Below, piece after piece: positions 8,047 to 63,357 of a stretch of 64,000 nucleotides of DNA (position 1 is its first letter; every line of letters starts with the position of its first letter). This stretch comes from a virus (lineage: Duplodnaviria; Heunggongvirae; Uroviricota; Caudoviricetes): the IMG/VR virus record IMGVR_UViG_3300006131_000005; one strand, written 5' to 3'. The notes under the pieces are model-generated. The model saw only the letters and a program-made list of their open reading frames with translations. It searched no databases and was not told the origin of the DNA. The position numbers and the translations under genes were made by a program.

Positions 8047-9270
8047 ATGAAATCCTACAAACACTTGTTTGACATCTGCATATCGGAAGAAAACCGCCGC
8101 AAAGCCATCAAGCAGGCCAAGCGTACAAAGCGCGTCCGTAAGATGCTGAAGAAACGGCACATGTCGGATGATGAACTGCTGTGCGCCTCCTACGACTGGA
8201 TCATGCAGTACGAGAACGCCGAGCATGTTCCGAAGGTCATCCATGACGGGACGGCCCACAAGGAACGGGTCATCATCGTGCCGACGCTGGAGGAGCTTAT
8301 CGTTCAGCACTGTGTCGCTAAGGCCATGGAAGAGATGTTCTGGCATGGAATGTACCAGCACAGTTACGCCAGTCTGCCCAAGCGAGGAGCCCACAAGGCC
8401 AAGAAAGTCATCGAGAAATGGATCGAAACCGACCCGAAGAACGTGAAGTATGTTCTGAAAATGGACGTCCATCACTTCTTTGACAGTATCCCGCACGATA
8501 TTCTGAAAGCAAAGCTCCGCAAGCATATCCACGACGACATGATGCTGGACTTGCTGTTCAAGATTATCGACGTGACTGACGCCGGTATCCCTCTTGGCTT
8601 CTATACCTCGCAGTGGCTCTCCAACTGGTATTTGCAGGAGCTGGACCACTTCATCAAGGAGCAGCTTCACGCGGTCTACTATGTCCGCTACATGGACGAC
8701 ATGGTCATCTTCGGGTCAAACAAGAAAGTTCTGCACCAAATCAGACAAGCCATCTCCGAGTATCTTGAGACCAACCTGGGCCTGGAGCTGAAAGGAAATT
8801 GGCAGGTGTTTCGTTTCTCCTACACCGTCAACGGTGAAGACCGAGGGCGGCCTCTGGACTTCATGGGCTTCCAGTTCTATCGGAACCGGACGGTGCTGCG
8901 CAAATCTATCATGCTGAAAGCAACCAGAAAAGCCCGCAAGATTCACAAGAAACCTTATCAGGAGCGCAAGCCAACTGTTCACGACTACCGCCAGATGATG
9001 TCGTATCTGGGATGGATCGACTGTACCGACACCTACCGGATGTACCTGAAGCATATCAAGCCGAGGGTCAGCTTCCAGCGGATGAAGCGGTACATTTCCC
9101 GCTATGACCGGCATGACGACCGTCGTGTGTACGAGCAGCTTGTGCAGCTATATTTGCCGAGAGGAGGAAAGCGCCGTGGAACCCGTTTACATCACCGCAG
9201 AAAGTACCGTCCGCCCCAAGGAAATCGAAGTGGGCGTAACGACTGTGTATCTGCGCCGCAACATTGTTGA
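8047..9270 (+). CDS. DGR reverse transcriptase
   Basis: RYMDDMVIFG (YxDD) and IPLGFYTSQWLSNWYL (DGR-type LGxxxSQ) motifs; basic N-terminus; Arg-rich C-terminal tail may extend beyond functional end. Confidence 0.85.
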   Translation: MKSYKHLFDICISEENRRKAIKQAKRTKRVRKMLKKRHMSDDELLCASYDWIMQYENAEHVPKVIHDGTAHKERVIIVPTLEELIVQHCVAKAMEEMFWHGMYQHSYASLPKRGAHKAKKVIEKWIETDPKNVKYVLKMDVHHFFDSIPHDILKAKLRKHIHDDMMLDLLFKIIDVTDAGIPLGFYTSQWLSNWYLQELDHFIKEQLHAVYYVRYMDDMVIFGSNKKVLHQIRQAISEYLETNLGLELKGNWQVFRFSYTVNGEDRGRPLDFMGFQFYRNRTVLRKSIMLKATRKARKIHKKPYQERKPTVHDYRQMMSYLGWIDCTDTYRMYLKHIKPRVSFQRMKRYISRYDRHDDRRVYEQLVQLYLPRGGKRRGTRLHHRRKYRPPQGNRSGRNDCVSAPQHC

Positions 9271-13137: not shown

Positions 13138-14382
13138 CTATCTTATTTTTCCGATTTCGGTCTTTAACCACTCGAACTCACGTTGAGTGTAGACCTTCTC
13201 GGTGATGTCCGAAATCTTGTGACCAACCATATATTTGATGGCATACTCGTCAACCCCGCCCTTTTTACAAGCCGTGACAAAATGTTTTCTACCATCGTGC
13301 GGACGATGCTCAGGATTCAGCTTCAGCTCATCACGAATCATTCCAAAACCTCTCTGGTAACGTGGATACGTCAGCATCGTGGGTTTGCCGCTTCGGCCAT
13401 CCGTACAAGTAAATAAATACTTGCTGCCAGCCTTTTGAGACGCCTGATATTGTCTCTCGACTAAGTACCGTATCTTCGAGTGGATCGGTACGACACGGTT
13501 CTCTCCGGCATCAGTTTTCATACCGCCTTTGAATGTCCAGTTTTCAAGGTCAACATTCTCCAGCTCCAGTAGGCCGAGCTCCTGGGGCCGCCAGCCTGAG
13601 TAACACTGGATCAGCAAGATATCGACATAGCGTTTATCGTCAACATGGGCCCAAAGCTGGGCCATCTCTTCTTCGGTGAAGGGAATATGCTCCTGTTTCA
13701 CCGTTTGGATCTCTTTGATGGTTTCTTCAGTGAGGTTGAAGGTGCGAGAGTAGTTCCGATCAACAAGTTCATATTCCAAAGCGTAGTCTAACATGAGATT
13801 GAACAGAGATTTAATTTTGTTCTTCATACTTGCCGAAGGATGCTGCTCTTTCCCTTTGACTTTGGCGGTTCCTTCTTCCATGCAGCCTTTTACATGACGA
13901 GCTCGAACATCCATCACCCGCATGTCATAGACAGCCGAACAATAAGCCCAAGCGGACGTTACAGCTCTGATACTGCCATCTGCTTTGAGTGTCTTAAAAT
14001 ATTCCTCCGACCACTTGTCGTAAAGTTCTTTGACGGTAATGGACGGCTCCAGGTCATAGGGATTCTTGTTGTACTCTACCAAGGCCGCATAGGCATCGTT
14101 GTAAGTAGGAAAATACGATTCCGGTTTTAGAGGCTTACAAATGGGTTTCCCTTCTGAGGTCTTACCAACCGTAACCATCGCCCGAAATGGGTTCCGAAGG
14201 TTGCGGTTTTTTATTTCGCTGATTTGACCGAATCCGTTTGGAAGGCGGCGTCGTTTGTTTCCCCTGGCACGGGGTTTGCGTTTGACGGTTGGCTGCATTG
14301 GATAACCACAATGCGGACAGGCCGAAGCCTTATCACTTACTTGCAGTTCGCATTCAGGGCATTGGATGAGCATGATTGACAC
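13138..14382 (-). CDS. int: Tyrosine site-specific recombinase (phage integrase) with N-terminal zinc ribbon
   Basis: CPEC..CPHCG N-term; C-terminal catalytic region HRPHDGRKHF..., KYMVGHK...Y; only long minus-strand gene in region. Confidence 0.85.
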   Translation of the reverse strand: MSIMLIQCPECELQVSDKASACPHCGYPMQPTVKRKPRARGNKRRRLPNGFGQISEIKNRNLRNPFRAMVTVGKTSEGKPICKPLKPESYFPTYNDAYAALVEYNKNPYDLEPSITVKELYDKWSEEYFKTLKADGSIRAVTSAWAYCSAVYDMRVMDVRARHVKGCMEEGTAKVKGKEQHPSASMKNKIKSLFNLMLDYALEYELVDRNYSRTFNLTEETIKEIQTVKQEHIPFTEEEMAQLWAHVDDKRYVDILLIQCYSGWRPQELGLLELENVDLENWTFKGGMKTDAGENRVVPIHSKIRYLVERQYQASQKAGSKYLFTCTDGRSGKPTMLTYPRYQRGFGMIRDELKLNPEHRPHDGRKHFVTACKKGGVDEYAIKYMVGHKISDITEKVYTQREFEWLKTEIGKIR

Positions 14383-24839: not shown

Positions 24840-24859
24840 ACAGGGGCTCTTCGCCTTTC

Positions 24860-24889
24860 CACGCGAAAAACACATATCCTTTTATGGAG
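24860..24889 (+). promoter_or_regulatory. Conserved intergenic motif, best consensus copy (CACGCGAAAAACACATATCCTTTTATGGAG), immediately upstream of tRNA-like gene
   Basis: Family motif; here it precedes a non-coding RNA, so the TATGGAG is not a start codon context. Confidence 0.45.
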
Positions 24890-24960
24890 AAACAGTTAGC
24901 TCAATGGTAGAGCGACAGACTAAAATCTGTGTGTTGCGAGTTCGAATCTCGCGCTGCTTC
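24890..24960 (+). tRNA. tRNA-like gene with aberrant 6-nt anticodon loop (CTAAAA); anticodon undetermined
   Basis: Canonical D-arm (GCTC-AATGGTA-GAGC), perfect T-arm GCGAG-TTCGAAT-CTCGC, 7-bp acceptor stem with one A-C mismatch; 71 nt, one short of standard; followed by terminator 24972..25005. Confidence 0.5.
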
Positions 24961-24971
24961 TCCGACGGCAT

Positions 24972-25828: not shown

Positions 25829-26656
25829 ATGAAAATCCCGACCGGATTAGTGCCCAAAGCGGAGCGGTTCTTGAAAAAGGCTTCGCCGACGATCCTTACC
25901 TGCATTGGCGCGGCTGGTGTCGTGGCTACCGCTATTATGGCGGCCAAGGCGACCCCGAAAGCGTTGAAGCTGATCCACTCGGACAGCCGCATCAATCATG
26001 ATGGAGACCCGAATGCCTACACCAAGAAAGAGGCAGTGGCGTCCTGCTGGAGGTGTTACGTCCCCACGGTAATTGTCGGCGGCTCCACCATCGCCTGCAT
26101 ATTTGGGGCGAATGCTCTGAACAAACGCCAACAGGCGGCTCTTGCCAGCGCCTACGGGCTCGTGAGTCAGGCCTATAACGACTACAAGCGCAAGGTTCGC
26201 GAGAATTTTGGCGAGGAGGCCCACCGGGATATCATGCGGCAAATCGCCGCTGAACGCAGCAGTGGCGCTACGATCATCTCCCCCAATCTCATTAACGGTT
26301 CGTGCTTGGAATTTGAGGGTGCGAACGAGGAACAGCGGCTGTTCTATGACGCGATGTCTGAGCGATATTTTCAGGCTACCATCAGTCAGGTTCTCCAAGC
26401 GGAGTATCATCTCAACCGTAATTTCGCGCTTGGTGGAGGATTTATCACGCTGAATAACTTTTATGAATTTCTCGGCATTGACGGTGTTCAGGGTGGCGAT
26501 GACATTGGTTGGATGGTTTCGGACGGCCTCTATTGGGTCGATTTCGACCACAGCCGAGCCATGGTGGACGATGGTCTGAATGGTGAAGTCGAATGTTTTA
26601 TCATCGACGCGCCGTTTCCGCCGGTCAGCGAAGCGGAATACGATGAATATTTGTGA
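25829..26656 (+). CDS. Two-TM membrane protein, paralog family member 1 (unknown function)
   Basis: Shares SP(E/T)IL..IG.AG...T.IMA.KATPKAL, CY(I/V)P..IVGG..IAC, ALA.AY, LN.FY..(L/I)G(L/I)...G...GW with 27232..28017 and 29932..30915. Confidence 0.55.
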   Translation: MKIPTGLVPKAERFLKKASPTILTCIGAAGVVATAIMAAKATPKALKLIHSDSRINHDGDPNAYTKKEAVASCWRCYVPTVIVGGSTIACIFGANALNKRQQAALASAYGLVSQAYNDYKRKVRENFGEEAHRDIMRQIAAERSSGATIISPNLINGSCLEFEGANEEQRLFYDAMSERYFQATISQVLQAEYHLNRNFALGGGFITLNNFYEFLGIDGVQGGDDIGWMVSDGLYWVDFDHSRAMVDDGLNGEVECFIIDAPFPPVSEAEYDEYL

Positions 26657-26889: not shown

Positions 26890-26905
26890 ACAGGGGCTCT
26901 TCCCC
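26881..26905 (+). terminator. Hairpin terminator (GAGTCCTGAACAGGGGCTC)
   Basis: Conserved hairpin family. Confidence 0.45.
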
Positions 26906-26925
26906 TTTGCCTGTGAGGTGAATGA

Positions 26926-27214
26926 CATGGATGCGCTTGATGCGGTAGACAAAATCCGCTGGTTCATGGAGCTTCCGGAAGCTCGCCCCGGTCTGCCCTG
27001 GGATAAGGAGTTTGAGAATCGTGCCTATATTCGCTGGGCCTGTAGTGAACTGACGCAGGATCTTATGGAGCGTCTGGATATTCCGGCCGAGATGACCATA
27101 GATGCGTTCTGGTTTCGGATGTTGCAGTTCTATCATTTCGCGGGCACTCCGAAAATGAGCAAAATCTTCCAGATCGCGATGGACACAGCGGATACAATCA
27201 AAGCAATGATTTGA
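26926..27214 (+). CDS. Hypothetical protein
   Basis: Internal ATG of ORF 26834..27214 after GTGAGGTGAATGAC. Confidence 0.4.
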
Positions 27215-27231
27215 AAGGAGATAGTTTTCTG

Positions 27232-28017
27232 ATGGATAAGCAAATGCTTGTCAATGCGGTTAAGAGTGTACGGACGGCGGCCAAACGGCACAGTCCGGAG
27301 ATACTCACCGGCATTGGCATCGCCGGCATGATTACTACGACTATCATGGCGGTTCGCGCCACACCGAAAGCTCTGACCATCATCGGCGAATGCGAGGTGG
27401 ATGAAAACCGGAAGCTCTCCAAGACGGAGGTCGTAAAAGCCACCTGGACCTGTTATATTCCGTCCGCAATCGTCGGCGGGGCGTCTATCGCTTGTCTTGT
27501 GGGCTCCACCTCCGTCAACCTTCGCCGGAACGCGGCCTTGGCGGCGGCTTACAGTTGCGCCGAGACTGCGCTGCGGGAGTACCAGGACAGGGTCGTAGAG
27601 GTCATCGGCGAGAAGAAGGAGCAGACGATCCGGGACGCGGTGGCAAAGGAACGGATCGAGAAGCATCCGGTTTCCGAGCAGCAGATTCTCTACACCGGCC
27701 ACGGTGATACCTTATGTTATGATGCTTGGTGCTCGCGGTACTTCAAATCCGACATTGAGGTGATTCGGCGGGCTATTCATGAACTGAATGACCGGCTTCG
27801 GGTGGACAATTATATTTCCCTGAACGAGTTTTATGACGCCATCGGCTTGGAAGAATCGAAAACCGGAGAAATCCTCGGGTGGAATATCGGGAAGGGCTAC
27901 ATCCAGCTTGCCTTCAGTTCCGTGTTGGCGTCCGATCTGACGCCGTTTCCGGATACGCCCTGTCTGGCGATCGACTTCCGGGTGCCCCCGCAGTACGACT
28001 ACGACCGGGGCTGGTGA
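27232..28017 (+). CDS. Two-TM membrane protein, paralog family member 2
   Basis: ATG after GAAAGGAGATAGTTTTCTG; see 25829..26656. Confidence 0.55.
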   Translation: MDKQMLVNAVKSVRTAAKRHSPEILTGIGIAGMITTTIMAVRATPKALTIIGECEVDENRKLSKTEVVKATWTCYIPSAIVGGASIACLVGSTSVNLRRNAALAAAYSCAETALREYQDRVVEVIGEKKEQTIRDAVAKERIEKHPVSEQQILYTGHGDTLCYDAWCSRYFKSDIEVIRRAIHELNDRLRVDNYISLNEFYDAIGLEESKTGEILGWNIGKGYIQLAFSSVLASDLTPFPDTPCLAIDFRVPPQYDYDRGW

Positions 28018-29931: not shown

Positions 29932-30915
29932 ATGAAAAAGACTGAACTGACTGCTACCTTGAGCCGCACCGTAAATAAGGTCGGCCTCCAGATCAAGAAG
30001 AGGAGCCCCGAGATCCTGATCGTCGCCGGCGTGGTAGGCACCGTCACCAGCGCCGTCATGGCCTGCAAGGCCACCCTGAAGGTGGACGAGATCATGCGGG
30101 AGAGCAACGACACCATCGAGAAGGTCCACAAGGCCCGGAGCATGGATGGGCAGCCGTCCCCCAGCAACCCTGAGAAGGTCATCGAGTACACCGCCGATGA
30201 CGCGAAGAGCGACTTGACCAAGGTCTATATCCAGACCGGCCTGAAGCTGGCTCACCTCTACGCCCCCTCTGTCATCCTGGGTGCTCTGTCCATCACCTGC
30301 TTCATTACGTCCCACAACATCATGCGCAAGCGCTGTGCCAATCTGGCGGCGGCATACGGCACCTTGGATACGGCCTTTAAGAAGTACCGCGAGCGGGTGG
30401 CAGAGCGCTTTGGTGAGGAAGTGGAGAAGGAGATCCGCTACAACATCAAGGCCAAGGAGATCGAGAAGACCATCGTGGACCCTGAGACCGGCGAGGAAAA
30501 GACTGTGAAGGAGACCGTCAAGGTCATGGACGGCGACCCTTCTTCGGTCAGTCCCTATGCTGTGGAGTTCAGCGAGAGCAACCCCAACTACTGCAAGGAC
30601 CCCAATATGAGCTTTGCCTTCCTGCGGGCCCAGCAGCAGTATTTCAACGACCTGCTCCAGGCGAAGGGGCACGTCTTCCTGAACGAGGTTTACGACGCTC
30701 TGGGCCTCCCTCGTACCAAGGCTGGCGCTGTCGTCGGCTGGGTCTTCGACTCGGATGCGCCTGTGGGCGACAACTATATCGACTTCGGCATGTACACCGC
30801 GGACAAGGAGAAGGTGCGGGATTTCGTCAACGGCGTGGAGCCGACGATCCTGCTGGACTTCAATGTGGACGGAGTGATTCTGGACCTGATCGCAAGCCAT
30901 CAGGCGATTGCGTAA
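29932..30915 (+). CDS. Two-TM membrane protein, paralog family member 3
   Basis: See 25829..26656; longest and most divergent copy. Confidence 0.55.
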   Translation: MKKTELTATLSRTVNKVGLQIKKRSPEILIVAGVVGTVTSAVMACKATLKVDEIMRESNDTIEKVHKARSMDGQPSPSNPEKVIEYTADDAKSDLTKVYIQTGLKLAHLYAPSVILGALSITCFITSHNIMRKRCANLAAAYGTLDTAFKKYRERVAERFGEEVEKEIRYNIKAKEIEKTIVDPETGEEKTVKETVKVMDGDPSSVSPYAVEFSESNPNYCKDPNMSFAFLRAQQQYFNDLLQAKGHVFLNEVYDALGLPRTKAGAVVGWVFDSDAPVGDNYIDFGMYTADKEKVRDFVNGVEPTILLDFNVDGVILDLIASHQAIA

Positions 30916-33031: not shown

Positions 33032-33262
33032 ATGAACGAGATGCTCAATTACGTCTTCAAGTCGATGAAGACCACCGAGAGGGCCCTGGCCAAGCTGGAA
33101 AAGACCATGCGCAGGCAGGTCAGGTCTAACCGGCGGCTCAAGCTCATTGCCATCACCGGCGTTGCTTACGCGCTCTGGGCGGAGACCGTCCGCCGGGAGC
33201 AGCAGGAGGAGATCGAACGCCTGAGCGGTGAGGTCGAGGAGTTGAAGCGCAAAGGAGAGTAA
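33032..33262 (+). CDS. Hypothetical small coiled-coil protein
   Basis: ATG after GAAAGGAGATACCCG. Confidence 0.4.
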   Translation: MNEMLNYVFKSMKTTERALAKLEKTMRRQVRSNRRLKLIAITGVAYALWAETVRREQQEEIERLSGEVEELKRKGE

Positions 33263-33270
33263 CACATGCA

Positions 33271-36200
33271 ATGTTAGATTTCGTAACGATTTCAACGCGT
33301 TCTACGAAGCGTGGCGTAATAGAAATCTATCCAAAGTTCATAGTCCGAACGAGCAACGACCTCATGATCCGGGGCGGCGATTTCTACGCTATCTGGGTTG
33401 ATGAACGCGGCTTATGGTCTACCAATGAGGAGGACGCTCTTCAGCTCATAGACCGCGAACTGGATAGATACGCGGAGGAACATCGCCACGGTTTCGATGC
33501 GAACATTCACATCCTACATCTGTGGGACGCCGAGTCGGGCATGATCGACGCATGGCATAAGTATTGCCAGAAGCAAATGTGGGACTCTTTCCATATGCTC
33601 GACGAAAAATTGATATTCTCCAACAGCAACGCTGGCAAGAAGGACTACGCCAGCAAAAAACTGCCCTATCCGCTTGAACCAGGAAGCACGACAGCCTATG
33701 ACAAGCTGATGTCCACTCTCTACGAACCGGAGGAGCGTCACAAGATTGAGTGGGCTATTGGCTCCGTTGTCTGCGGTGAGTCCAAGAAGCTCCAGAAGTT
33801 CATGGTGCTGTATGGCGAGGCCGGTACGGGTAAGTCTACGGTGCTCAACATCATCCAGAAACTCTTTGAGGGCTACTACAAGACCTTTGAGTCGAAGGCG
33901 CTTGGGTCGGCCAGTAATGTATTTGCGTTGGAAGCGTTTCGCTCGAACCCGCTGGTAGCCATTGAGCATGACGGAAAACTGTCTCGCATTGAGGACAATA
34001 CCCGTCTGAACAGTCTGGTTTCCCACGAGGAGATGACGGTGAATGAGAAGTTCAAGTCTGTCTACACCAACAGCTTCAAGTGCTTTCTGTTCATCGGCAC
34101 AAATGAGCCCGTCAAGATTACGGACGCCAAATCGGGCTTGATCCGAAGGCTCATCGACGTCTCCCCATCGGGAAACAAACTGCCAGCTGCGGAATACCGG
34201 GCAATCGTGAAGCAGATCGACTTCGAGCTCAGCGCGATTGCCTACCACTGTCAGGAGGTCTACCAGGAAGACCCCGGCTACTATGACGATTACATCCCTA
34301 TCGCCATGCTGGGGGCCTCCAACGACTTCTATAACTTTGTGGTGGACAGCTACCCGGTGTTCAAGCAGGAGGACGGCGTATCGCTGAAAGCAGCCTGGGA
34401 GATGTATAAAACCTACAATGAGGAGGCGAAGGTCACCTATCCACTGAGCAAGCGGGCGTTTAAGGAGGAACTGAAAAACTATTTCTGGACGTATGATGAT
34501 CGCCCTACCCTTGACGACGGAGCCCGTATCCGCAATTACTACAGCGGGTTTCGGACGGAAAAGTTCGAGGATCGGCTTGTCAGTATCACGCCCGAGGAAA
34601 AGAAGCCAAAACTCATTCAGTTTGACGCCACAGAATCTATATTTGACCGGGAGTGTTCCGATTGCCTCGCGCAGTATGCCTCGGCCAATGAAACTCCGAC
34701 CCAGAAGTGGGAAAAGGTCACGACTCAGCTCTCGCAGTTGGACACCAGTCGGCTTCACTATGTCAAGCTGCCGGAAAACCACATCGTCATCGACTTTGAT
34801 ATTCCGGACGACCAGGGCAACAAGTCCTTTGAGCGGAATCTGGAAGAGGCGAGTAAGTGGCCGGCGACCTATGCCGAGGTGAGCAAGAGCGGCTGCGGCA
34901 TCCACCTGCACTACATCTATACCGGCGATGTATTAAGACTCAGCAGGGTCTATGCAGACCACATTGAGATCAAGATATTTACGGGAAAGAGCTCCCTGCG
35001 CCGGAAGCTGTCGAAAAGCAATAACCTGCCTATCTCGACGATCAGCTCAGGTTTACCGTTGAAAGGAGAAAGTAAAGTGGTAAACGATAAAGTGGTCCAA
35101 AGCGAGAAAGGGCTTAGAAGACAGATCAGGCAAAATCTCAATAAGGAGATCCATCCCAATACTAAGCCCAGCATCGACTTTATCTATAAGATCCTGGAGG
35201 ACAGCTATAACAGCGGCCTCGTCTATGATGTGACGGATATGCGCAACGCTGTTCTGGCCTTCGCGGCCAACAGCAGCAACAAATCCGAGTATTGCATCAA
35301 ACTGGTCAACCGGATGAAGTTCAAGTCCGACGATCAGTCTCCCTCGGCGAAGGACGACAAGGCCAAGCTGGTGTTCTACGACGTGGAGGTCTTCCCCAAC
35401 CTGTTCCTGGTGAACTGGAAGTTCGAGGGCCCGGGGGCGTCGGTGGTGCGGATGATCAATCCCACCTCCAAGGAGATTGAGGAACTGATGAAGTTCAACC
35501 TGGTCGGCTTCAACTGCCGCCGGTATGACAATCACATCCTCTACGCCCGTCTGATGGGATACACCAACGAGCAGCTCTATAACCTGTCCCAGCGCATCAT
35601 CAGCAGCGAGAAAAAGGCCCGGAGCAACAACTGCTTCTTTGGTGAGGCGTATAACGTCTCGTATACGGACGTCTATGATTTCTGCTCCAAAAAGCAGTCT
35701 CTGAAGAAGTGGGAAATCGAGTTGGGCATCCACCATCAGGAGCTGGGCCTTCCCTGGGATCAGCCGGTGCCGGAGAACATGTGGATGAAGGTCGCCGAAT
35801 ACTGCGACAACGACGTTATTGCCACTGAAGCTGTATTCAACGCCCGGAAGGCGGACTTCGTTGCTCGAGAGATTCTGGCGGACGTGGCCGGCATGACGGT
35901 CAATGACACCACCAACACCCTGACCGCCCGGATTATCTTTGGCGGGAACCGTAAGCCGCAGGATGTGTTTAACTATCGGGATATGGGCGACGTGAGCCAG
36001 ATATTTGATCCTGACGGAGATCTGCCTTTTACCATGGGCCCCCAGGAGTTCGATCGGTATACGGCCTTCGACAAAAAGAAGCGGCCTATCTTCCCTGGGT
36101 ACAAGTTTGAGAACGGCAAGTCCATCTATCGCGGCGAGGAGGTTGGCGAAGGCGGCTATGTCTATGCCGAGCCCGGAATGTACGGGAACATCGCCCTGCT

Positions 36201-37401
36201 GGACATCGCCTCCATGCACCCCAGTTCCATCATCGCGGAGGAGCTCTTCGGCCCCGAGTTCACCAAGCGGTTCGAGGAGATCAAGGAAGCCCGTGTCGCC
36301 ATCAAGCACAAGGACTTTGACCGGGCCCGCAAGATGCTGAACGGCGCTTTGGCAAAGTATCTGACCGATGAGAACGCCGCTGCTGATCTGGCTCAGGCTC
36401 TGAAGATTGCCATCAACTCGGTTTACGGCCTTACCTCTGCCAACTTCGAGAACCCCTTCCGAGACAACCGGAACCGGGACAACATCGTCGCCAAACGCGG
36501 AGCCCTGTTCATGGTCAACCTCAAGCACGAGGTCCAGAAACGGGGCTTTACTGTTGCCCACATCAAGACGGACTCCATCAAGATCCCCGATGCTACGCCG
36601 GAGATCATTCAGTTTGTCACCGACTACGGCAAGCTCTACGGTTATATTTTCGAGCATGAAGACACTTATGACCGTATGTGTCTGGTGAACAATGCCGTCT
36701 ACATCGCCAAGTATAAGACCCCTCATATTGACAAAAAAACTGGGAAAGAAATCTGGTGGACGGCCACCGGGACGCAGTTCCAGGTTCCCTATGTGTTCAA
36801 GAAGCTCTTCAGTCATGAGGAGATCACCTTCGAGGACATGTGCGAGACCAAGTCGGTAAAGGATGCTCTATATTTGGATATGAACGAGAAGCTGCCGGAT
36901 GTGTCCGAGTATGAGAAAGAGCATACGACTCTATGGAAGGATATTTGCGATATGACGCTCCCTCATGATGCAGAAATGGAGCGTAAATGTGCAAGAGCCG
37001 AGGAGTTGTCTGATCTCATTGCTCAGGGTCACAACTACGTCTTTATCGGAAAGGTCGGTCAGTTCTGTCCTATGATGGACGGCTTCGGCGGCGGTGTCCT
37101 GCTTCGCCAAACGGATAACAAGAAGACCGGCGAAAAGGGCTATGCCGCTGTGACTGGCACGAAGGGCTACCGCTGGATGGAATCCGAGATGGTCAGACAA
37201 CTGGACAAGCAAGACGGTATCGACCGGAGCTATTATGACGCCATGGTGGACGCGGCTATTCAGGACATTTCCGGTTATGGTGACTTCGAGTGGTTCGTCT
37301 CCGAAGACCCTTACGTCAAGGTCGAGGACGATACCCCACCGTGGGAAAGTCCCGGCGAGCCTTGGCAGTCCGACGACAACATCGCCTTTGATGTGCGCTA
37401 A
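33271..37401 (+). CDS. Multidomain replicase: SF3/D5-like helicase (Walker [10 protein letters not shown]) - primase-polymerase (prim-pol) - 3'-5' exonuclease - family B DNA polymerase
   Basis: P-loop at aa ~185; [15 protein letters not shown] and GIHLHYIY (prim-pol); Exo I FYDVEVFP, Exo II YCDNDV; Pol motif [14 protein letters not shown], motif [11 protein letters not shown], motif [10 protein letters not shown]. Confidence 0.8.
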
Positions 37402-37429
37402 AACTACACACTCTGTTGTGGAAGGAGAG

Positions 37430-37460
37430 GATGCCTGTAACAGGGCGTCTTCTCTTTTAT
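37430..37460 (+). terminator. Hairpin terminator + T-run after replicase
   Basis: GCCTGTAACAGGGC stem followed by TCTTCTCTTTTATATTTTT. Confidence 0.45.
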
Positions 37461-37484
37461 ATTTTTGAAAAGGAGACTTTATCA

Positions 37485-37964
37485 ATGGCTTATCAGAATG
37501 TTGACAACATCGTGATCGAAAATGCCCGCCTTCTCTTCCGGAACTTCGCCGGTAACGAGAGCAAGTACAACCGCGCCGGACAGCGCAACTTCTGCGTCTT
37601 CATCGACGATCCCGACGAGGCTCAGAAGCTGATCAATGACGGTTGGAATGTTCGCATCCTGGCTCCCCGCGAGGATGACGAGACGGCTCGCTACTATCTC
37701 CAGGTGGCTGTCAGTTTCCAGAACATCCCGCCCGTAATCCATATGATGACCCGGCGGAACCGGCGCGGGACTGAGCTGGATGAGGAGTCCGTCGGCACCC
37801 TTGACTATGCGGAGATCCGCAACGTGGATTTAACGATCCGTCCCTACTCCTGGGAGGTCAACGGCAAAACCGGCGTCAAAGCCTACCTCAAGTCCATGTG
37901 GGTCACTATTGAGGAAGACGAGTTCGCGGCCAAGTATGCCGCTGAAGAGGGCCCGGAGGAGTAA
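37485..37964 (+). CDS. Hypothetical protein, possible ssDNA-binding/OB-fold protein (weak)
   Basis: ATG after GAAAAGGAGACTTTATCA; position after replicase; no decisive motif. Confidence 0.3.
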
Positions 37965-39683: not shown

Positions 39684-40053
39684 GCACTGGGAGGCGGAGT
39701 TTCATTTTACGCTCGATCCCTGCGCAACCCCGGAAACGGCAAAATGCGCCAAATTTTACACCGAAGAGGATAACGGGCTTGTCCAAGACTGGACTGGAGA
39801 AACGGTGTTCTGCAACTCTCCTTATTCTGATCAGCAGCAAACCAAGTGGGTCAGAAAATGCTATGAGCATGGCCTTCGGGGGAGGGTAGCAGTCATGCTG
39901 ATACCGGCCAGAACCGACACAAAACGCTTTCACGATTATATTTACGGGAAGGCGGAGGTGCGGTTCATCAAAGGCCGGCTCAAGTTTGGAGGCTGTGAAA
40001 ACTCCGCTCCCTTTCCGTCCATGGTTGTTGTCTTCGGAAAAAGAACCCAATGA
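39580..40053 (+). CDS. dam: Phage Dam-family (PF05869-like) DNA N6-adenine methyltransferase
   Basis: EAEFHFTLDPCA, DNGLVQDWTGETVFCNSPYS (NPPY variant NSPY), VMLIPARTDTKRFHDYIY, AEVRFIKGRLKFGG..APFPSMVVVF; start overlaps upstream gene by ~100 nt so true start uncertain. Confidence 0.6.
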   Translation: MPAMKLRSTTSTSATRSAPPASTSSAQSKRPDATKHWEAEFHFTLDPCATPETAKCAKFYTEEDNGLVQDWTGETVFCNSPYSDQQQTKWVRKCYEHGLRGRVAVMLIPARTDTKRFHDYIYGKAEVRFIKGRLKFGGCENSAPFPSMVVVFGKRTQ

Positions 40054-40069
40054 AAGGAGGACGCGCCCC

Positions 40070-41632
40070 ATGGGAGGCATAAGTCTCTATGACTATCAAC
40101 TCGACGCCATCAATCGGATGAAAAACGGATGTATCCTGTGCGGTGGCGTCGGCAGCGGTAAGTCGCGCACATCCCTTGCGTACTATTACAAGCAGCAGGG
40201 CGGTAATCTGTTTGATACAAGTCATAGGCCAATGCAAAACCCAAAGGGTCTTTACATCATTACCACCGCCCGGAAACGGGATACCCTTGAGTGGGAGGGG
40301 GAGCTGGCTCCGTTCCTCCTCTCCACTCACCCGGAAGCTAACTATTACAAAAACACGGTTGTGGTGGACTCTTGGAACAATATCGCCAAGTATACGGATG
40401 TGAGAGACGCATTCTTTATATTTGACGAGCAGCGGGTCATCGGCTATGGAGCCTGGACCAAGGCGTTCCTGAAAATTGCCAAGGCGAACAACTGGATACT
40501 GCTCTCGGCAACGCCGGGCGACACTTGGCAGGATTATATTCCCGTCTTTATTGCCAATGGCTTCTACCGAAACAAAACTCAGTTCGTCGATAACCATATC
40601 ATCTGGGATCGCTACGCGAAATTTCCCAAGATTGACAGCTATCGCAACACAGGCCGCCTGATTCGGCTGCGGGACAGCATTCTGGTGACCATGGACTTCG
40701 AGCGAAAAACTGTTGCCCACCATGAGGATGTACCAGTGTCGTATGATATTTCCAAGTACAAGAACATCATGCGGAAACGCTGGAACCCCTGGGAAGACCG
40801 GCCAATCGAGACTGCGGCGGAGCTGTGTATGGCTCTTCGCCGGATTGTCAACTCAGATGAGTCCAGAGCGGTTGCCACGCTGGAGATTTTGGAAGACCAC
40901 CCCAAGGCCATCATCTTCTACAGCCACAATTATGAACTGGATATTTTGAGATCGCTCGGGTATCAGGAGGGAACTGAGATTGCGGAGTGGAATGGCCACA
41001 AGCACCAGGAAATTCCCACCGGGGACAAATGGGTGTACCTCGTCCAGTATACGGCTGGCTGCGAAGGCTGGAACTGCATTACCACAGACACCATTATATT
41101 TTTCTCTCAGCAGTATTCCTACAAGGTCGCAACTCAGGCGGCTGGGCGAATCGACCGGCTCACTACGCCTTATACCGACCTCTGGTATTACCATCTCAAG
41201 AGTTTTTCCGGTATCGACCTGGCCATTGCGAAAGCGCTCAAGGCGAAGAAGAATTTCAACGAGGGCAAGTTTATTGGCTGGTCTACGAAGCCGATGGAGG
41301 TGAGGAAAATCGCTGCGCAGAAGGAGGACAAAATTGCCGAGCTGATTAACCGGCGGAGGAGACAACTTCTCGTTCACAGCATTATCTACTACAAAATGGA
41401 CGAGAACATCATTTCTGACGCTACCTGGTCAAAGTGGGGACAGGAATTGGAAGAACTCCAAGCGAAGTACCCTGAAATCGCCGCCAAGCAGCCCTACGCG
41501 AAAGAGTTCGAGGGATTTGACCATTCCACCGGTATGTCGCTTCCTCTGAACGATCCCCGGGCCGTCAACAAGGCTCGGCAACTGCTTCAGCAGAAAGAAA
41601 ACGGGCGGTTCGATAACTTCAACGCCGCTTGA
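40070..41632 (+). CDS. Superfamily-2 (SNF2/DEAD-like) helicase
   Basis: YDYQLDAINRM.., Walker A GGVGSGKS, motif II FFIFDEQ, motif III LLSATPG, motif VI QAAGRIDR. Confidence 0.7.
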   Translation: MGGISLYDYQLDAINRMKNGCILCGGVGSGKSRTSLAYYYKQQGGNLFDTSHRPMQNPKGLYIITTARKRDTLEWEGELAPFLLSTHPEANYYKNTVVVDSWNNIAKYTDVRDAFFIFDEQRVIGYGAWTKAFLKIAKANNWILLSATPGDTWQDYIPVFIANGFYRNKTQFVDNHIIWDRYAKFPKIDSYRNTGRLIRLRDSILVTMDFERKTVAHHEDVPVSYDISKYKNIMRKRWNPWEDRPIETAAELCMALRRIVNSDESRAVATLEILEDHPKAIIFYSHNYELDILRSLGYQEGTEIAEWNGHKHQEIPTGDKWVYLVQYTAGCEGWNCITTDTIIFFSQQYSYKVATQAAGRIDRLTTPYTDLWYYHLKSFSGIDLAIAKALKAKKNFNEGKFIGWSTKPMEVRKIAAQKEDKIAELINRRRRQLLVHSIIYYKMDENIISDATWSKWGQELEELQAKYPEIAAKQPYAKEFEGFDHSTGMSLPLNDPRAVNKARQLLQQKENGRFDNFNAA

Positions 41633-43260: not shown

Positions 43261-43641
43261 ATGGACTTTCACACCGAATATTTAGGAAAGCCCTTTGTCC
43301 CGACATGGATTTACGGAGATGTGGACCCGCACAACGAAGAGTTTAATCAGACAATTCAAGCCGTAGAACGTGCGCTCGGTTTCAAACTCTTCGTATGGCA
43401 GAAAGCTTTCATCAACCGTGGAGAGTTTCGGCAGATGGGCGCGACTACGGCGAAAATTCTTCGTGAATTGCTGAATGTCTCTGGCGAGCCCATCGACTAC
43501 AGTCGCCCGTCGGCAAGTAAGCGGGATCAGTTTTACCGGGAAGAGCTTCGTCGTATCAAGTGCAAGCTGGATGAGGCCGGAATCCCGACGAGGCTCGTTT
43601 GGTTCTCGGAACGGGATAAGCACTATTGGCTGCATCGCTGA
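43261..43641 (+). CDS. Hypothetical protein
   Basis: ATG after GGAGGAATGAGGAACT. Confidence 0.45.
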   Translation: MDFHTEYLGKPFVPTWIYGDVDPHNEEFNQTIQAVERALGFKLFVWQKAFINRGEFRQMGATTAKILRELLNVSGEPIDYSRPSASKRDQFYREELRRIKCKLDEAGIPTRLVWFSERDKHYWLHR

Positions 43642-43671
43642 CTATCAACTATAAAAAGGAGAAACAACCTA

Positions 43672-44720
43672 TGGAACTGAAAAAATTCTGCACCGACCAC
43701 AACATCCCCCTAGAGGAGCTCGGCCCCATCGGCGAGGTGAGCGATGGCTTTCACACTTTCGACTCTCTCTACCACCAGAGGCTGATCCTCTTCGCCGCCC
43801 TGGTCAGTGCCTTTCCGAATAAAGCGTGGAAATCCCACAAGCACAGCGACGGCGAGGCTCCCTTCGGCGGAGGCTGGTTTATCGTCGGTATTCAGACACC
43901 GGAAGGCCAGTACACCTATCACTACGAGGACAAGGATTGGAATATTTTCCAGTGTCCGGAAGTGGAGAAGGCTCCCGAGTGGGATGGTCACACCGATAAG
44001 GACGTCACGCGGCTCCTCTCCCTGTTCAAGCCTGAGCCGGGCACACAGTCCGACTGGGCCGAGCGGGAGGTCGCGCTTGCTATCGCCGCTGAAAAAAAGA
44101 TGGCGGAGGGTACGAATGACTGGGCCTATGGTGCAGCTTGCTATGGGAGCGCTCTGCGGGCCCACCAGTCTCTTTCCCGCGACGGTCACTCCGGCTACAG
44201 CATCCAGATCACCAAGGGTATCCTGAACCGGCTGATTGACGGGAAGTGCCTGACGCCCATCGAGGACACGCCGGATATTTGGACGGACATCTCGGAGTCC
44301 TTCTCCAAGGACGATAAACGCAAGCATTACCAGTGCAACCGCATGTCCTCTCTATTCAAAGAGGTGGCCGAGGACGGCACCGTGACCTTCAGCGACGGGA
44401 ATCGGGTCTATTGCGTCAATGCCAATGATCCCGACAACACCTATACGAACGGCTTCGCTACCAATCTGGTCAATAAGATATTTCCCATCCGGATGCCCTA
44501 TTTCCCGGCCAGTAAGAAGTTCCGGGTCGTTGTGGATGAGTTCCTCTTTGATCCAAAGAACGGCGACTTCGACACGATCGGTTATCTCTGCATCATGACT
44601 CCGGATGGAAAGAAGGTTGAACTGAACCGCTACTTCAAGGAAGAGGGCGGAAAGCTGGTGCCCATTGAGAAGACCGAGTTCGATGAGCGGAAAGCGAAGA
44701 AGGTGAAGATAAATGGCTGA
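43672..44720 (+). CDS. Hypothetical protein (349 aa)
   Basis: ATG after AAAAAGGAGAAACAACCT. Confidence 0.5.
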
Positions 44721-60573: not shown

Positions 60574-63357
60574 ATGGACCCTAGTTTAGACGAAGTGTTC
60601 GGTCAGGTTGTTGAGATGGCCGAGCAAGACCCTGACATTCTGATGCACTACGGCATCGGTAAACTGGATGGCGCTCCGGGTCCTGGTTCCGGCCGCTATC
60701 CCCTGGGAAGCGGAAAGAACCCCAACCAGCGCAGCGGCGACTTCCTCTCCCGGGTGGATGAGCTTCGCAAGCAGAGGTTTACCTACACTGATAAGGATGG
60801 GAAGGTTTGGACGGGAGACAATGCCATCGCCAAGGCTATGGGCCTGACCAGCACCCAGTTCCGCACTCAGTTGGGCCTTGCTCGGGATGAGCGCCGCTCA
60901 TCTAATGTGGCTACGGCCAAACGGCTGCGCGACGAGGGCAAGACTTTGAAGGAAATTGCTGACACAATGGGTTTCCCCAACGACTCCTCCGTTCGTTCCC
61001 TGCTTAATGAGAGTTCGGAAGCCCGAATGAACCAGGCCAAGAAGACCGCTGAGTTCCTGAGACAGCAGATCGCTGAAAAGGGAATGATCGACGTGGGCAC
61101 CGGCGTGGAGCGGGAACTCGGTATCTCTAGGGAGAAGCTAAACCAGGCGCTATATATGTTGGAGATGGAGGGCTACGCTGTCTATGGCGGCGGCGTTCCC
61201 CAGGTCACCAACAAGGGCCAGCAGACAAATCTCAAGGTTCTCTGTCCTCCAGGCACGGAGCACAAGGACATCTACAACTTTGGCGAGATCCATTCTGTTG
61301 TGGATTACATCAGTCCTGACGGCGGTGAGACCTTCAAGCCGGCCTTTGTCTATCCTGAGAGTATGGACTCATCCCGGCTGAAGATTCGCTATGCCGAAGA
61401 AGGCGGGCTCCAGCGGGACGGAACCGTGGAACTTCGCCGTGGTGTGGCTGATCTGTCCCTGGGTGAGTCCAGCTATGCTCAGGTCCGCATTCTGGTAGAT
61501 GGAAAGAAGTACATCAAGGGAATGGCATTCTACGGCGATGATAAGGACTTCCCTGATGGCGTGGATGTGATCTTTAACACCAACAAGAAGAAGGGTACTC
61601 CTATGGGGGATGTCCTCAAGACCATCAAGGATGATCCAGACAATCCCTTTGGCTCCCTCATCAAGGAGCGCGGCGGCCAGAGCTACTACATCGACCCGAA
61701 AACCGGGAAGGAGAAGCTGTCTCTCATCAATAAACGGGCCGAGGAAGGGGACTGGGGGGAATGGAGCGATCATCTCCCCTCTCAATTTCTTTCTAAGCAG
61801 TCCATGACACTGATTAAAAAGCAGCTTGGCTTGGCTGCGGCTGATAAGGCGTCTGAGTTCGACGAGATCTGTGCCCTCACCAATCCCACCATGAAGAAGG
61901 CACTTCTGGCTTCCTTCGCTGACGACTGCGATTCAGCGGCCGTACACCTTCAGGCAGCGGCTTTGCCGAGACAGAAGTATCAGGTCATCCTTCCTATTGC
62001 TTCGATGAAGGACACTGAGGTCTACGCCCCCAATTACAGGGATGGCGAGACCGTCGCGCTTGTCCGTTATCCTCATGGCGGCACCTTCGAGATTCCAATT
62101 CTTAAGGTGAACAACAAGCAGAGTGAGGCGAAGCGCATCCTGGGCAACGCTCTTGACGCTATTGGCATCAACTCCAAGGTGGCGGAGCGGCTGTCCGGCG
62201 CTGACTTCGATGGCGACACTGTTATGGTCATCCCCACCGGGGGCAAGATCAAAATTACATCCACTCATGCGCTGAAAGGGCTGGAAGGCTTCGACCCGAA
62301 GCTGGAGTACGGCGGCAAACCGGAAGGTTCTTTCAAGCAGATGAAGAACACCCAGACCGAAATGGGTAAGATCTCCAATCTCATCACCGACATGACTCTG
62401 AAAGGCGCCACTGAACCGGAGTTAGCGAGGGCTGTACGGCATAGTATGGTGGTCATCGACGCCGAGAAACATCATCTCGACTACAAGCAGAGCGAGAAGG
62501 ACAACGGCATTGCCGCCTTGAAGAAGAAGTATCAGGGCTATGTGACCGACGACGGTGAGGAAAGAGGCGGCGCCTCTACCCTGATCTCAAGGGCAAAGTC
62601 CGAGGTCTCCGTTCCAAAGCGGAAAGGAAGTCCTAAGACTGACCCTGACACCGGGGAGCTGGTATGGAAGGTCGATGAGGATCGGTTCTACACCGACCCC
62701 AAGACCGGGAAGACCGTGGAGAGGCGGCAGAAGAGTACCCAGATGGCCGAGGAAAGGGACCCCTATAAGCTGTCGTCCGGCACTCCGCAGGAAGAGGCTT
62801 ACGCCGCTTACGCCAGCCAGATGAAGTCCCTGGCCAACCAGGCCCGTAAGGAGATCCTATCCACCGGCAAGATTACTTACTCCGCCTCCGCCAAAGAGAC
62901 CTATCAGACTGAGGTAGCCTCCCTGACCTCCAAGCTCAACATCGCCCTCAAGAACGCCCCCAGGGAGAGGCAGGCCCAGGTCATGGCCAACAGCGTCGTG
63001 GCCGCCAAGAAGAAGGACAACCCCGGTATGACCAAGGAGGAGATCAAGAAGGCCAGCCAGCAGGCGTTGAGCTCTGCCCGTGCTACTGTTGGCGCAAAGC
63101 GGACGCCTATCGTCATCACTGACCGGGAATGGCAGGCGATTCAGGCCGGCGCGATCAGTGAGAACAAGCTGACGCAGATCATCAACCACGCCGACATCGA
63201 CGTGCTTCGGTCTTACGCGACGCCGAGAGCGACGACAACGCTCAGCACCGCGAAGATCAACAAGATCTCGTCCATGAACGCTTCTGGTTACACCACTGCT
63301 GAGATCGCTGAAAGTCTTGGCGTCTCAACTTCCACTGTGCGAAAGTATCTCTCTTGA
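60574..63357 (+). CDS. Large protein with RNAP beta'-type ADFDGD metal-binding motif and C-terminal HTH; candidate YonO-like single-subunit RNA polymerase (tentative)
   Basis: SGADFDGDTVMVIPTGG resembles NADFDGDQMAVHVP of multisubunit RNAP beta'; C-term TTAEIAESLGVSTSTVRKYLS sigma-region-4-like HTH; no P-loop, so not a terminase. Confidence 0.35.
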   Translation: MDPSLDEVFGQVVEMAEQDPDILMHYGIGKLDGAPGPGSGRYPLGSGKNPNQRSGDFLSRVDELRKQRFTYTDKDGKVWTGDNAIAKAMGLTSTQFRTQLGLARDERRSSNVATAKRLRDEGKTLKEIADTMGFPNDSSVRSLLNESSEARMNQAKKTAEFLRQQIAEKGMIDVGTGVERELGISREKLNQALYMLEMEGYAVYGGGVPQVTNKGQQTNLKVLCPPGTEHKDIYNFGEIHSVVDYISPDGGETFKPAFVYPESMDSSRLKIRYAEEGGLQRDGTVELRRGVADLSLGESSYAQVRILVDGKKYIKGMAFYGDDKDFPDGVDVIFNTNKKKGTPMGDVLKTIKDDPDNPFGSLIKERGGQSYYIDPKTGKEKLSLINKRAEEGDWGEWSDHLPSQFLSKQSMTLIKKQLGLAAADKASEFDEICALTNPTMKKALLASFADDCDSAAVHLQAAALPRQKYQVILPIASMKDTEVYAPNYRDGETVALVRYPHGGTFEIPILKVNNKQSEAKRILGNALDAIGINSKVAERLSGADFDGDTVMVIPTGGKIKITSTHALKGLEGFDPKLEYGGKPEGSFKQMKNTQTEMGKISNLITDMTLKGATEPELARAVRHSMVVIDAEKHHLDYKQSEKDNGIAALKKKYQGYVTDDGEERGGASTLISRAKSEVSVPKRKGSPKTDPDTGELVWKVDEDRFYTDPKTGKTVERRQKSTQMAEERDPYKLSSGTPQEEAYAAYASQMKSLANQARKEILSTGKITYSASAKETYQTEVASLTSKLNIALKNAPRERQAQVMANSVVAAKKKDNPGMTKEEIKKASQQALSSARATVGAKRTPIVITDREWQAIQAGAISENKLTQIINHADIDVLRSYATPRATTTLSTAKINKISSMNASGYTTAEIAESLGVSTSTVRKYLS

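Follow-up and report, generated by a model that had tools for sequence, protein, structure and literature searches.

Can a single phage gene supply helicase, primase, proofreading exonuclease and DNA polymerase as one continuous protein, and if it can, is such an arrangement new? The question is raised by an open reading frame at positions 33271..37401 (plus strand, as are all features described below) of a 64,000-nucleotide stretch of viral DNA, which was analyzed as a whole and is referred to here as the window. An earlier note had proposed that this frame encodes one 1376-aa replicase carrying the four modules in that order and had called the combination unusual. We find that the fusion is real and already known. 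It was described in 2016 (PMC4889955) and characterized biochemically in 2025 (PMC12205980), and the novelty that the note implied therefore falls away.

Reading frame and family membership

The ORF listing and the translation agree on an unbroken frame from ATG to stop (1376 aa plus stop), which is further supported by the phrog_4210 and GP55 alignments described below. Translation recovered every motif that had been claimed, in the order originally given: GEAGTGKST (aa 182-190), HIVIDFD (aa 504-510), GIHLHYIY (aa 543-550), FYDVEVFP (aa 702-709), YCDNDV (aa 844-849), an 11-residue segment at aa 976-986, KIAINSVYG (aa 1045-1053), and KTDSIKI (aa 1099-1105). Many gene callers choose an alternative start at M32 (1345 aa). 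We favor M1 because residues D3, F4 and P21, which precede M32, are conserved throughout the family and because a GGAG ribosome-binding site, read from the sequence at 33254..33257, lies 13 nt 5' of the ATG at 33271.

Searches against PHROG profiles aligned aa 2-1352 with positions 1-1294 of the 1304 positions of phrog_4210 (E=0, 2034 bits). BLASTP aligned aa 2-1338 with aa 1-1298 of GP55 from Lactococcus phage 1706 (a Fremauxvirus) at 39% identity and 57% positives (891 bits, E=0), the identity of individual domains ranging from 29% to 59% and reaching its top value in the archaeo-eukaryotic-type (AEP) primase domain. GP55 is the "four-in-one replicase" that displays helicase, RNA-primase, 3'-5' exonuclease and family-B polymerase activities in vitro (Zhang, Lu, Zhu, Huang 2025, Nucleic Acids Res 53:gkaf542; PMC12205980). 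Residues essential in GP55 (K189, D509, Y655, F667, D712, E714 and D949) correspond here to K188, D510, Y652, F664, D704, E706 and D978, and in an alignment of nine diverse family members all of these equivalents are invariant except Y652, which is Y in eight members and F in one. Judged by its sequence, the product is an orthologue of GP55 and an unexceptional representative of a family already known.

The family is widely distributed, and together with the full-length phrog_4210 match this puts a chance occurrence of the motifs out of the question. By tblastn, 252 deposited phage genomes contain a full-length homologue, usually annotated "DNA primase/polymerase", and the phages concerned infect Faecalibacterium, Gordonia, Arthrobacter, Streptomyces, Curtobacterium and Lactococcus. 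At the DNA level, a megablast search with 20 kb around the gene returned no close relative among deposited phages. At least 8000 metagenomic protein clusters (90% identity) matched at E<=1e-5, and 444 representatives of a 50% clustering matched at E<=1e-30. Since about 125 of the best 150 of these 444 representatives are 1240-1520 aa long (the rest measuring 511-1074 aa), the fused architecture is the norm of the family. Identical or near-identical replicases also occur on dozens of independent metagenome contigs.

Domain architecture

Profile and motif evidence supports all four modules in the proposed order on this single polypeptide, and the domain annotation that had been called for proved uneven in its reach: the helicase passes its Pfam cut-off, while the AEP and polymerase domains require family profiles, fold and motifs. 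When Pfam was run on this protein and nine family members, DUF5906 alone passed threshold. Pfam by itself would thus wrongly fail two domains, because the AEP domain is invisible to it and the polymerase remains below threshold. Single-sequence phmmer searches of the PDB gave only marginal matches (E 0.016-0.067), and a family profile was needed.

The protein begins with a conserved N-terminal region (aa 1-150; 33271..33720) in which D3, F4, P21, D30, G35, F38, W49 and D61 are invariant in the nine-member alignment. This region had no specific match in Pfam, PHROG-domain or PDB searches; in GP55 it is assigned to the 'helicase domain' (PMC12205980). The ATPase core of an SF3 (D5-like) helicase follows (aa 151-300; 33721..34170), its motifs comprising a Walker A segment at G182-T190 with K188, a Walker B segment ending in D234, sensor 1 at N278 and an arginine finger at R292/R293. 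All of these residues of the GxxGxGK(S/G)T helicase are invariant across the family. The assignment of the note to a D5/P4-type SF3 helicase is well supported, with DUF5906 scoring 49.4 bits on aa 180-293 (cut-off 27.6; 8.5e-13) and the family profile matching PDB entries 7ola (1.3e-8), a primase chain that we take to be the SaPI5 primase-helicase, and 6k9c, the NrS-1 helicase (6e-4). The alignment with 7ola spans family-profile positions 152-424 and so extends into a post-ATPase helical region (aa 301-435; 34171..34575) that weakly resembles the D5 C-terminal domain, Pfam Pox_D5 giving E=0.12 for aa 354-407 of this protein and values of <=0.0068 for the best three of the nine family members. 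In GP55, the K189A substitution abolishes helicase activity (PMC12205980).

The catalytic domain of a PriS-like AEP prim-pol (aa ~455-600; 34633..35070) is recognized by its motifs and fold. Motif I (D508-x-D510, here D508-F-D510) and motif II (S540-G-C-G-I-H545-L-H547) are invariant in the family alignment, as are E566/K568 and R577/R578, and invariant E566 is a putative motif III. A first AlphaFold2 model of aa 1-700 reached a pLDDT of only 37 with a shallow alignment (28 sequences, 73-99% identity), and a profile search with the nine-member family profile again returned homologues of the gut clade (71-100% identity). A search with a seven-member AEP plus accessory-domain profile that omitted the gut clade supplied diverse fragments, and because of these the second run succeeded. 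The resulting model (pLDDT 89) adopts the AEP catalytic fold and has the NrS-1 and pRN1 prim-pols as its best structural matches, which bears out the prim-pol reading. Sequence comparisons are far less sensitive. Pfam reported no AEP family for the replicase or for any of the nine family members, PHROG primase families give weak matches (phrog_3022, 3.8e-5), and an hhalign comparison of the AEP sub-profile with the NrS-1 sequence alone is likewise weak (probability 15%, E=0.0018), although it places DxD and SGxGxH correctly on the NrS-1 segments FIDLD and SPSGDGLH. Sequence HMMs cannot follow so divergent a domain, whose membership rests on fold and motifs.

Immediately downstream lies an element that the otherwise correct domain reading of the note had overlooked, a four-helix alpha-helical primase accessory domain (aHD; aa ~612-680; 35104..35310) in which Y652 and F664 are the counterparts of GP55 Y655 and F667. 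Neither a helix-bundle domain (HBD) nor a PriL-type accessory domain was found in the replicase, the aHD occupying that place. In GP55, the aHD is required for priming (PMC12205980).

The 3'-5' proofreading exonuclease subdomain (aa ~695-890; 35353..35940) carries invariant Exo I (D704/E706), Exo II (N748/Y752-D753) and Exo III (Y844/D848) residues. The claimed exonuclease motifs are consequently genuine, but one label has to be changed: YCDNDV, taken for Exo II, is Exo III (Y844-x3-D848), and the family alignment identifies the true Exo II as GFNCRRYD (N748...Y752-D753). Further support comes from phrog_1252 ('DNA polymerase'), which matches aa 676-1155 at 5.4e-49, and from the PolB genes of phages 9g, BRET and Vid5, which match aa 671-1030 by tblastn. 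The D712A/E714A mutant of GP55 has lost exonuclease activity (PMC12205980).

The remainder of the protein is the family-B polymerase subdomain (aa ~891-1376; 35941..37398), for which motifs A, B and C were all located. Motif A (D978-IAS-M-H-P-S) and motif B (K1045-IAI-N-SV-Y-G) match the PolB pattern; motif C (H-I-K-T-D1101-S) is a family-wide variant with Lys (K1099) instead of the first Asp of DTDS. D978, D1101 and the K, N, Y and G residues of motif B are invariant in the nine-member alignment. Against the PDB, the family profile matches E. coli Pol II (6.1e-8), archaeal PolB (2.1e-5) and Pol alpha (2.4e-4). Pfam DNA_pol_B (PF00136) falls below its gathering threshold (12.9 bits versus 23) and appears at E<=0.1 in three of nine family members (best 0.0029). 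In GP55, D949A (equivalent to D978) abolishes polymerase activity (PMC12205980). This is a divergent PolB lineage whose membership rests on motifs, profile matches to the PDB and the biochemistry of GP55. Insertions that vary between lineages (near aa 905-936 and 1207-1245) are also apparent in the alignment, as is an acidic C-terminal tail, rich in Trp, whose last residues are FDVR.

Proposed mechanism and its alternatives

Collinear homology with GP55, conservation of every catalytic residue and the fold of the AEP and aHD domains are established for the window protein. We consider it highly probable that the ORF encodes a four-in-one replicative enzyme, orthologous to GP55, that is organized from N to C terminus as N-terminal region, SF3/D5-type helicase, AEP primase, aHD, and PolB with its 3'-5' exonuclease. 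By analogy with GP55, the AEP and aHD domains, the latter with its four helices substituting for the usual primase helix bundle, would synthesize short RNA primers de novo on single-stranded DNA. The PolB site, a separate catalytic center, would extend these primers with dNTPs, possibly in trans within an oligomer, the exonuclease would proofread, and the helicase would unwind the duplex ahead, allowing strand-displacement synthesis. We infer from GP55, which is mainly a dimer by SEC-MALS (PMC12205980), not only these activities but also a preference of the helicase for UTP/dTTP, a GTP start of priming and a dimeric state. One polypeptide together with an adjacent ssDNA-binding protein would therefore constitute the enzymatic core of a replisome. 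The 'self-sufficient replisome core' envisaged in the note has in fact been demonstrated experimentally for the 39%-identical orthologue (PMC12205980). Against the four-in-one reading stand the fact that identity to characterized GP55 is just 39%, the window protein's own activities being predicted ones, the failure of Pfam to detect the AEP domain or to lift PolB above threshold, and the KTDS form of motif C in place of canonical DTDS.

A long frame of this kind could be an artefact if assembly had produced a chimera or if a frameshift had fused a helicase-primase gene with a polymerase gene. Family entries of 175-516 aa do exist in databases, and about 25 of the best 150 representatives measure only 511-1074 aa, which might point to split genes, but many of these short sequences come from contigs no longer than a few kb and may be truncated genes. 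Moreover, the architecture is unbroken in 252 independently sequenced phage isolates, recurs, identical or nearly so, on several dozen independent metagenome contigs, and is active as full-length recombinant GP55 (PMC12205980). We reject the artefact, whose probability is close to nil: the same ORF in the isolates and independent contigs effectively refutes it.

Two other alternatives accept the fusion and redistribute the work within it. The PolB domain could be impaired, leaving the AEP domain as the real DNA-synthesizing enzyme, a PrimPol like that of NrS-1 or pRN1. The replacement of the first Asp of DTD by K1099, a non-canonical KxY motif, the sub-threshold DNA_pol_B score and the kinship of the AEP fold with bifunctional prim-pols all lean in that direction. 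However, the metal-binding residues D978 and D1101 and the K/N/Y/G residues of motif B are invariant, GP55 shares KTDS and is active, and its AEP domain yields RNA primers only, with no incorporation of dNTPs (PMC12205980). In GP55, furthermore, the polymerase mutant loses primer extension and the primase mutant retains it (PMC12205980), and we regard an impaired PolB as extremely unlikely. The opposite possibility is that the polymerase dispenses with RNA primers, being protein-primed as in phi29 or resembling piPolB, and that the AEP domain serves repair, translesion synthesis or restart. Mobile elements do carry primer-independent PolBs (PMC5695915), and the authors of the GP55 study aligned its PolB motifs to phi29 polymerase (PMC12205980). 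Yet no terminal-protein gene was recognized among the ORFs scanned, the best profile matches are to RNA/DNA-primed PolBs (Pol II, archaeal PolB, Pol alpha), and GP55 mutants lacking a functional primase domain showed no de novo synthesis, nor did phi29 polymerase (PMC12205980). We hold this alternative to be very unlikely.

The four-in-one reading may be capable of extension. It is conceivable, though on balance doubtful, that the protein is 'five-in-one', with aa 1-150 and/or the D5_C-like segment (aa ~300-435) recognizing the phage origin. Such a replicase would be its own initiator and helicase loader, like P4 gp-alpha, SV40 T antigen and papillomavirus E1. No dedicated initiator was found in the ORFs scanned, many early genes having no assigned function. 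A weaker possibility is that the gut-clade insertions (~905-936 and ~1207-1245) and the conserved Trp-rich acidic FDVR tail dock the neighboring ssDNA-binding protein. Neither origin recognition nor docking by tail or insertions is addressed in the GP55 study (PMC12205980).

Genomic setting and known systems

Next to the replicase lies a gene for an ssDNA-binding/annealing protein (37416..37964), which matches phrog_4787 ('single strand annealing protein') at 2.6e-64 and for which Pfam PF24083 (Phage_ssDNA_bind) is recorded on contigs of identical context. Its product is a likely replication partner of the replicase, and in phage 1706 GP66 is called the single-stranded binding protein of GP55 (PMC12205980). 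The replicase gene resides within a replication module with the ssDNA-binding protein and an SF2 helicase, as in 1706 and FP_oengus. With regard to separate polymerase genes, the large ORFs scanned in the window included no second DNA polymerase, DnaG primase or DnaB helicase. Because packaging, portal, capsid and tape-measure genes are absent from the window, we estimate that at least 20 kb of phage genome lie outside it, where a further replication gene may reside. The source phage is an Oengusvirus-like temperate gut siphophage (GC ~52%). It also carries a DGR.

The co-occurrence of four replication activities in one protein was termed "unprecedented" (PMC12205980), and since the work on GP55 has already been done, the window adds just one more uncharacterized orthologue. 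What it still offers is practical: it shows the extreme abundance of the family in human-gut phages, with at least 8000 clusters at 90% identity and 444 deep ones at 50% that nearly all retain the fusion, and it supplies a 39%-identical, higher-GC variant with insertions that could be compared with GP55, both in enzyme engineering for primer-free isothermal amplification and in structural study of how helicase, primase and polymerase sites are coupled.

The protein of phage 1706 was first noted as a fusion of an SF3 helicase with an AEP primase and a PolB by Kazlauskas, Krupovic and Venclovas (2016, PMC4889955). The window protein shares with GP55 the order helicase, PriS-like AEP, aHD, Exo and PolB and the KTDS motif C, but is 59 residues longer, with an insertion of ~32 aa after the exonuclease and another of ~40 aa C-terminally, and has a different Trp-rich acidic tail ending in FDVR. 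Both neighborhoods contain an ssDNA-binding protein, an SF2 helicase and a YonO-like RNA polymerase, although 1706 is a low-GC dairy phage and the source phage a temperate gut phage of high GC (~52%). Among the closest deposited homologues is gp28 of the Faecalibacterium phage FP_oengus (Oengusvirus; 'helicase/polymerase'), which is 58.9% identical over its full length, likewise ends in FDVR and has a portion of the aa 905-936 insertion. The 'DNA primase/polymerase' proteins of Gordonia (Tanisvirus), Arthrobacter (Mudcatvirus), Streptomyces (Bingvirus) and Curtobacterium phages are also full-length homologues, these actinophage proteins being 44-52% identical to the window protein. This group and the source phage have in common an integrase, DUF6353 paralogues, the replicase, the ssDNA-binding protein and the YonO-like RNA polymerase; they lack similarity at the DNA level, and the source phage differs in its longer early region and its DGR.

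More distant systems combine related or analogous parts in other ways. NrS-1 gp28 and pRN1 ORF904 are AEP prim-pols fused to an SF3 helicase, but there the helicase is C-terminal rather than N-terminal, a helix-bundle domain takes the place of the unrelated aHD, and the AEP site both primes and polymerizes, whereas here DNA synthesis would fall to a separate PolB. The other known phage triple fusion, Pas55 of Actinoplanes phage phiAsp2, joins an SF3 helicase to a DnaG primase and PolA (PMC4889955). Set apart on its description by a non-homologous DnaG/Toprim primase and family A polymerase, it nevertheless follows an analogous helicase-primase-polymerase logic.

An intact fused replicase gene

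The replicase, a 1376-aa protein of the window phage, is by sequence comparison an unremarkable gut-phage orthologue of GP55, the characterised "four-in-one replicase" of Lactococcus phage 1706. A fusion of these four activities is already known, having been reported bioinformatically in 2016 (Kazlauskas et al., PMC4889955) and biochemically, with the study of GP55, in 2025 (Zhang et al., PMC12205980). The earlier note had proposed that helicase, primase-polymerase, exonuclease and family-B polymerase (PolB) are joined in one polypeptide. The ORF listing and translation gave an ORF without interruption (33271..37401, plus strand) in which all quoted motifs were found in the order claimed, and the single intact fusion was confirmed by these data and by its recurrence across the family. 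The start codon (ATG, 33271) follows the upstream gene's stop codon by 9 nt and a GGAG by 13 nt. Most public gene calls start at M32 instead (33364; 1345 aa), which cuts off a conserved N-terminus whose D3, F4 and P21 are kept family-wide in our 9-member alignment; M1 is the better start.

The family of GP55-type replicases is large. Its PHROG (phrog_4210, 'DNA polymerase') spans the full-length protein (E=0, 2034 bits), and tblastn recovered 375 phage records, 252 of which cover at least 80% of it. The closest deposited homologue belongs to Faecalibacterium phage FP_oengus (58.9% identity, annotated 'helicase/polymerase'), with others in Gordonia and Arthrobacter phages (~50%), Streptomyces phages (~45%) and Lactococcus phages (37-39%); most deposited homologues are annotated 'DNA primase/polymerase'. 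At least 8000 metagenomic candidates matched at E<=1e-5 in a word-indexed search, and an exhaustive search of 50%-identity representatives returned 2455 proteins at E<=1e-3, of which 444 reached E<=1e-30. Since about 125 of the best 150 representatives are 1240-1520 aa long (the remainder 511-1074 aa), the fused architecture is the stable and dominant state of the family, and this dominance excludes an assembly artefact.

Independent evidence for the domains

The domain interpretation of the earlier note was supported by collinearity with GP55, conserved residues, profile matches and structural modelling. Pfam DUF5906 scored above cut-off in the helicase. Searched against the PDB, a family profile matched, in the helicase, the primase chain 7ola (1.3e-8), which we take to be the SaPI5 primase-helicase, and the NrS-1 helicase (6e-4). 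Over PolB motifs A to C it matched Pol II of E. coli (6.1e-8), PolBs of archaea (2e-5) and Pol alpha (2.4e-4); Pfam PF00136 remained below threshold on the replicase.

Because the PriS-like primase catalytic domain (AEP) is nearly invisible to sequence methods, it was modelled. AF2 gave a pLDDT of 37 for aa 1-700 with a shallow alignment and of 89.1 for aa 436-700 with an alignment of 120 diverse fragments from a region-specific profile search. The top ten Foldseek matches of the latter model in the PDB were exclusively pRN1 ORF904 and NrS-1 N300 prim-pols (E 1.8e-5 to 1.4e-3), the first match past these having E>0.2, and its BFVD matches were viral prim-pol proteins. The alpha-helical primase accessory domain (aHD), four helices following the AEP core (aa ~612-680), gave generic helical-repeat matches only, in agreement with the published view that it differs from the canonical primase helix bundle (PMC12205980).

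The phage and its gene layout

PHROG scans and comparison with FP_oengus show that the window phage is an Oengusvirus-like temperate siphophage. No close DNA relative was found among deposited phages, and many metagenome contigs (68-91 kb) carry an identical replicase in unchanged context. Tail genes and a diversity-generating retroelement (DGR) come first, followed by a minus-strand integrase, a long early region that includes three DUF6353 paralogues, the replication module, nucleotide-metabolism genes (MazG-like, FolD-like) and a YonO-like single-subunit RNA polymerase; packaging and head genes fall beyond the window. In the replication module the replicase is accompanied by an ssDNA-binding/annealing protein, an N6-methyltransferase-like gene and an SF2 helicase, and no second DNA polymerase, DnaG primase or DnaB helicase was found among the large ORFs scanned within the window.

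The tyrosine integrase (13138..14382, minus strand; phrog_1, 7.8e-42) lies within the lowest-GC part of the window (12-16 kb; 44-46% versus ~52% overall), with the tail and DGR genes directly upstream, a layout that fits a genome in circular or vegetative form rather than a prophage integrated between host flanks. The segment 4746..9270 looks like a DGR, with VR at 7486-7596, TR at 7764-7874 and a reverse-transcriptase ORF at 8047..9270 (phrog_1423, 3.5e-103). A 111-nt repeat (84% identity) has one copy in the tail-protein ORF 4746..7619, at its 3' end, and the other in intergenic DNA. At all mismatches but one, the intergenic copy has A where the tail gene has a different base, the signature of adenine mutagenesis.

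The early paralogues (phrog_2152, Pfam DUF6353; 25829..26656, 27211..28017 and 29932..30915, plus strand) are likewise three in FP_oengus. ARAGORN reported a tRNA-like gene (24889..24963, plus strand), with no anticodon determined. A 54-nt direct repeat (24805-24858 and 26855-26908, 80% identity), the first copy just upstream of this gene and the second 2 kb downstream, holds the GC-rich hairpin GCCCTGAACAGGGGC and may be a repeated terminator. The SF2 helicase (39986..41632, plus strand; phrog_62, 1.4e-65) matches a 'DNA ligase' PHROG over its C-terminal ~95 aa (phrog_6466, 1.2e-32), and a weak Pfam Nlig-Ia match is on record for the gene on related contigs; such a pairing of helicase and ligase domain beside the replicase is unusual. 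The 364-aa ORF at 43626..44720 (plus strand) matches PHROGs of unknown function and carries Pfam PF25311 (WDGH) and PF25185 (Tad3) on the identical-context contigs. Because Tad proteins are anti-Thoeris factors, it may be an anti-defence gene. Within the nucleotide-metabolism region, the segment 50883..52541 (plus strand) encodes a MazG-like pyrophosphatase (phrog_229, 5.7e-38) alongside a FolD-like tetrahydrofolate dehydrogenase/cyclohydrolase (phrog_7320, 4.7e-99). The 927-aa product of 60574..63357 (plus strand; phrog_4291 'RNA-dependent RNA polymerase', E=0) is homologous to gp55 of FP_oengus and orf75 of phage 1706. A preprint (10.1101/842583) reads this protein as a DNA-dependent RNA polymerase of the single-subunit, YonO/crAss-like type that carries HTH domains, and considers it a signature gene of this phage supergroup.

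Mechanism and comparison with GP55

In GP55, the AEP and aHD make RNA primers of 2-22 nt, starting preferably with GTP at sites of loose specificity (5'-CCAAC-3' being the strong one); PolB, a separate site, extends primers from 4 nt upwards and can also do this in trans; the exonuclease proofreads; and the helicase, which is UTP/dTTP-dependent, gives strand displacement and stimulates both polymerase and exonuclease, the protein being mainly a dimer (PMC12205980). By analogy, the AEP and aHD module of the window replicase would synthesise RNA primers, a separate PolB site would extend them and could act in trans, the exonuclease would proofread, and the helicase would confer strand displacement and stimulate polymerase and exonuclease. 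The obvious partner of the replicase is the ssDNA-binding protein encoded by the adjoining gene (37416..37964). In Pfam, the region that follows the ATPase shows weak Pox_D5 similarity. Since SF3 replicative helicases are frequently fused to origin-binding domains (PMC4889955), this region or the N-terminal 150 residues may have an initiator function, the most interesting of the readings left for the replicase.

The two proteins are collinear from residue 2 to 1338 (39% identity, 57% positives, 891 bits). Residues whose mutation kills GP55 activity (PMC12205980) have counterparts in the helicase (GP55 K189, window K188), the primase (D509, D510, with D508), the aHD needed for priming (Y655 and F667, Y652 and F664), the exonuclease (D712 and E714, D704 and E706) and the polymerase (D949, D978). 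Scored on the 9-member alignment, which covers six host genera, all of these but Y652 were invariant; at Y652, 8 members have Y and one has F. Also invariant in all nine were the helicase Walker B Asp D234, sensor-1 Asn N278 and arginine finger R292/R293, AEP motif II (SGxGxHxH), Exo II N748 and D753, Exo III Y844 and D848, motif B K1045, N1049, Y1052 and G1053, and motif C K1099-T-D1101-S. The motif YCDNDV, labelled Exo II in the earlier note, is Exo III. Motif C reads KTDS throughout the family, GP55 included, and its Lys is therefore a lineage trait compatible with activity.

The window protein differs from GP55 in a ~32-aa insertion after the exonuclease (aa ~905-936), where FP_oengus and a Curtobacterium phage carry shorter insertions, in a variable ~40-aa insertion at aa ~1207-1245, and in a Trp-rich acidic C-terminal tail that ends in FDVR and is common to FP_oengus and the gut clade.
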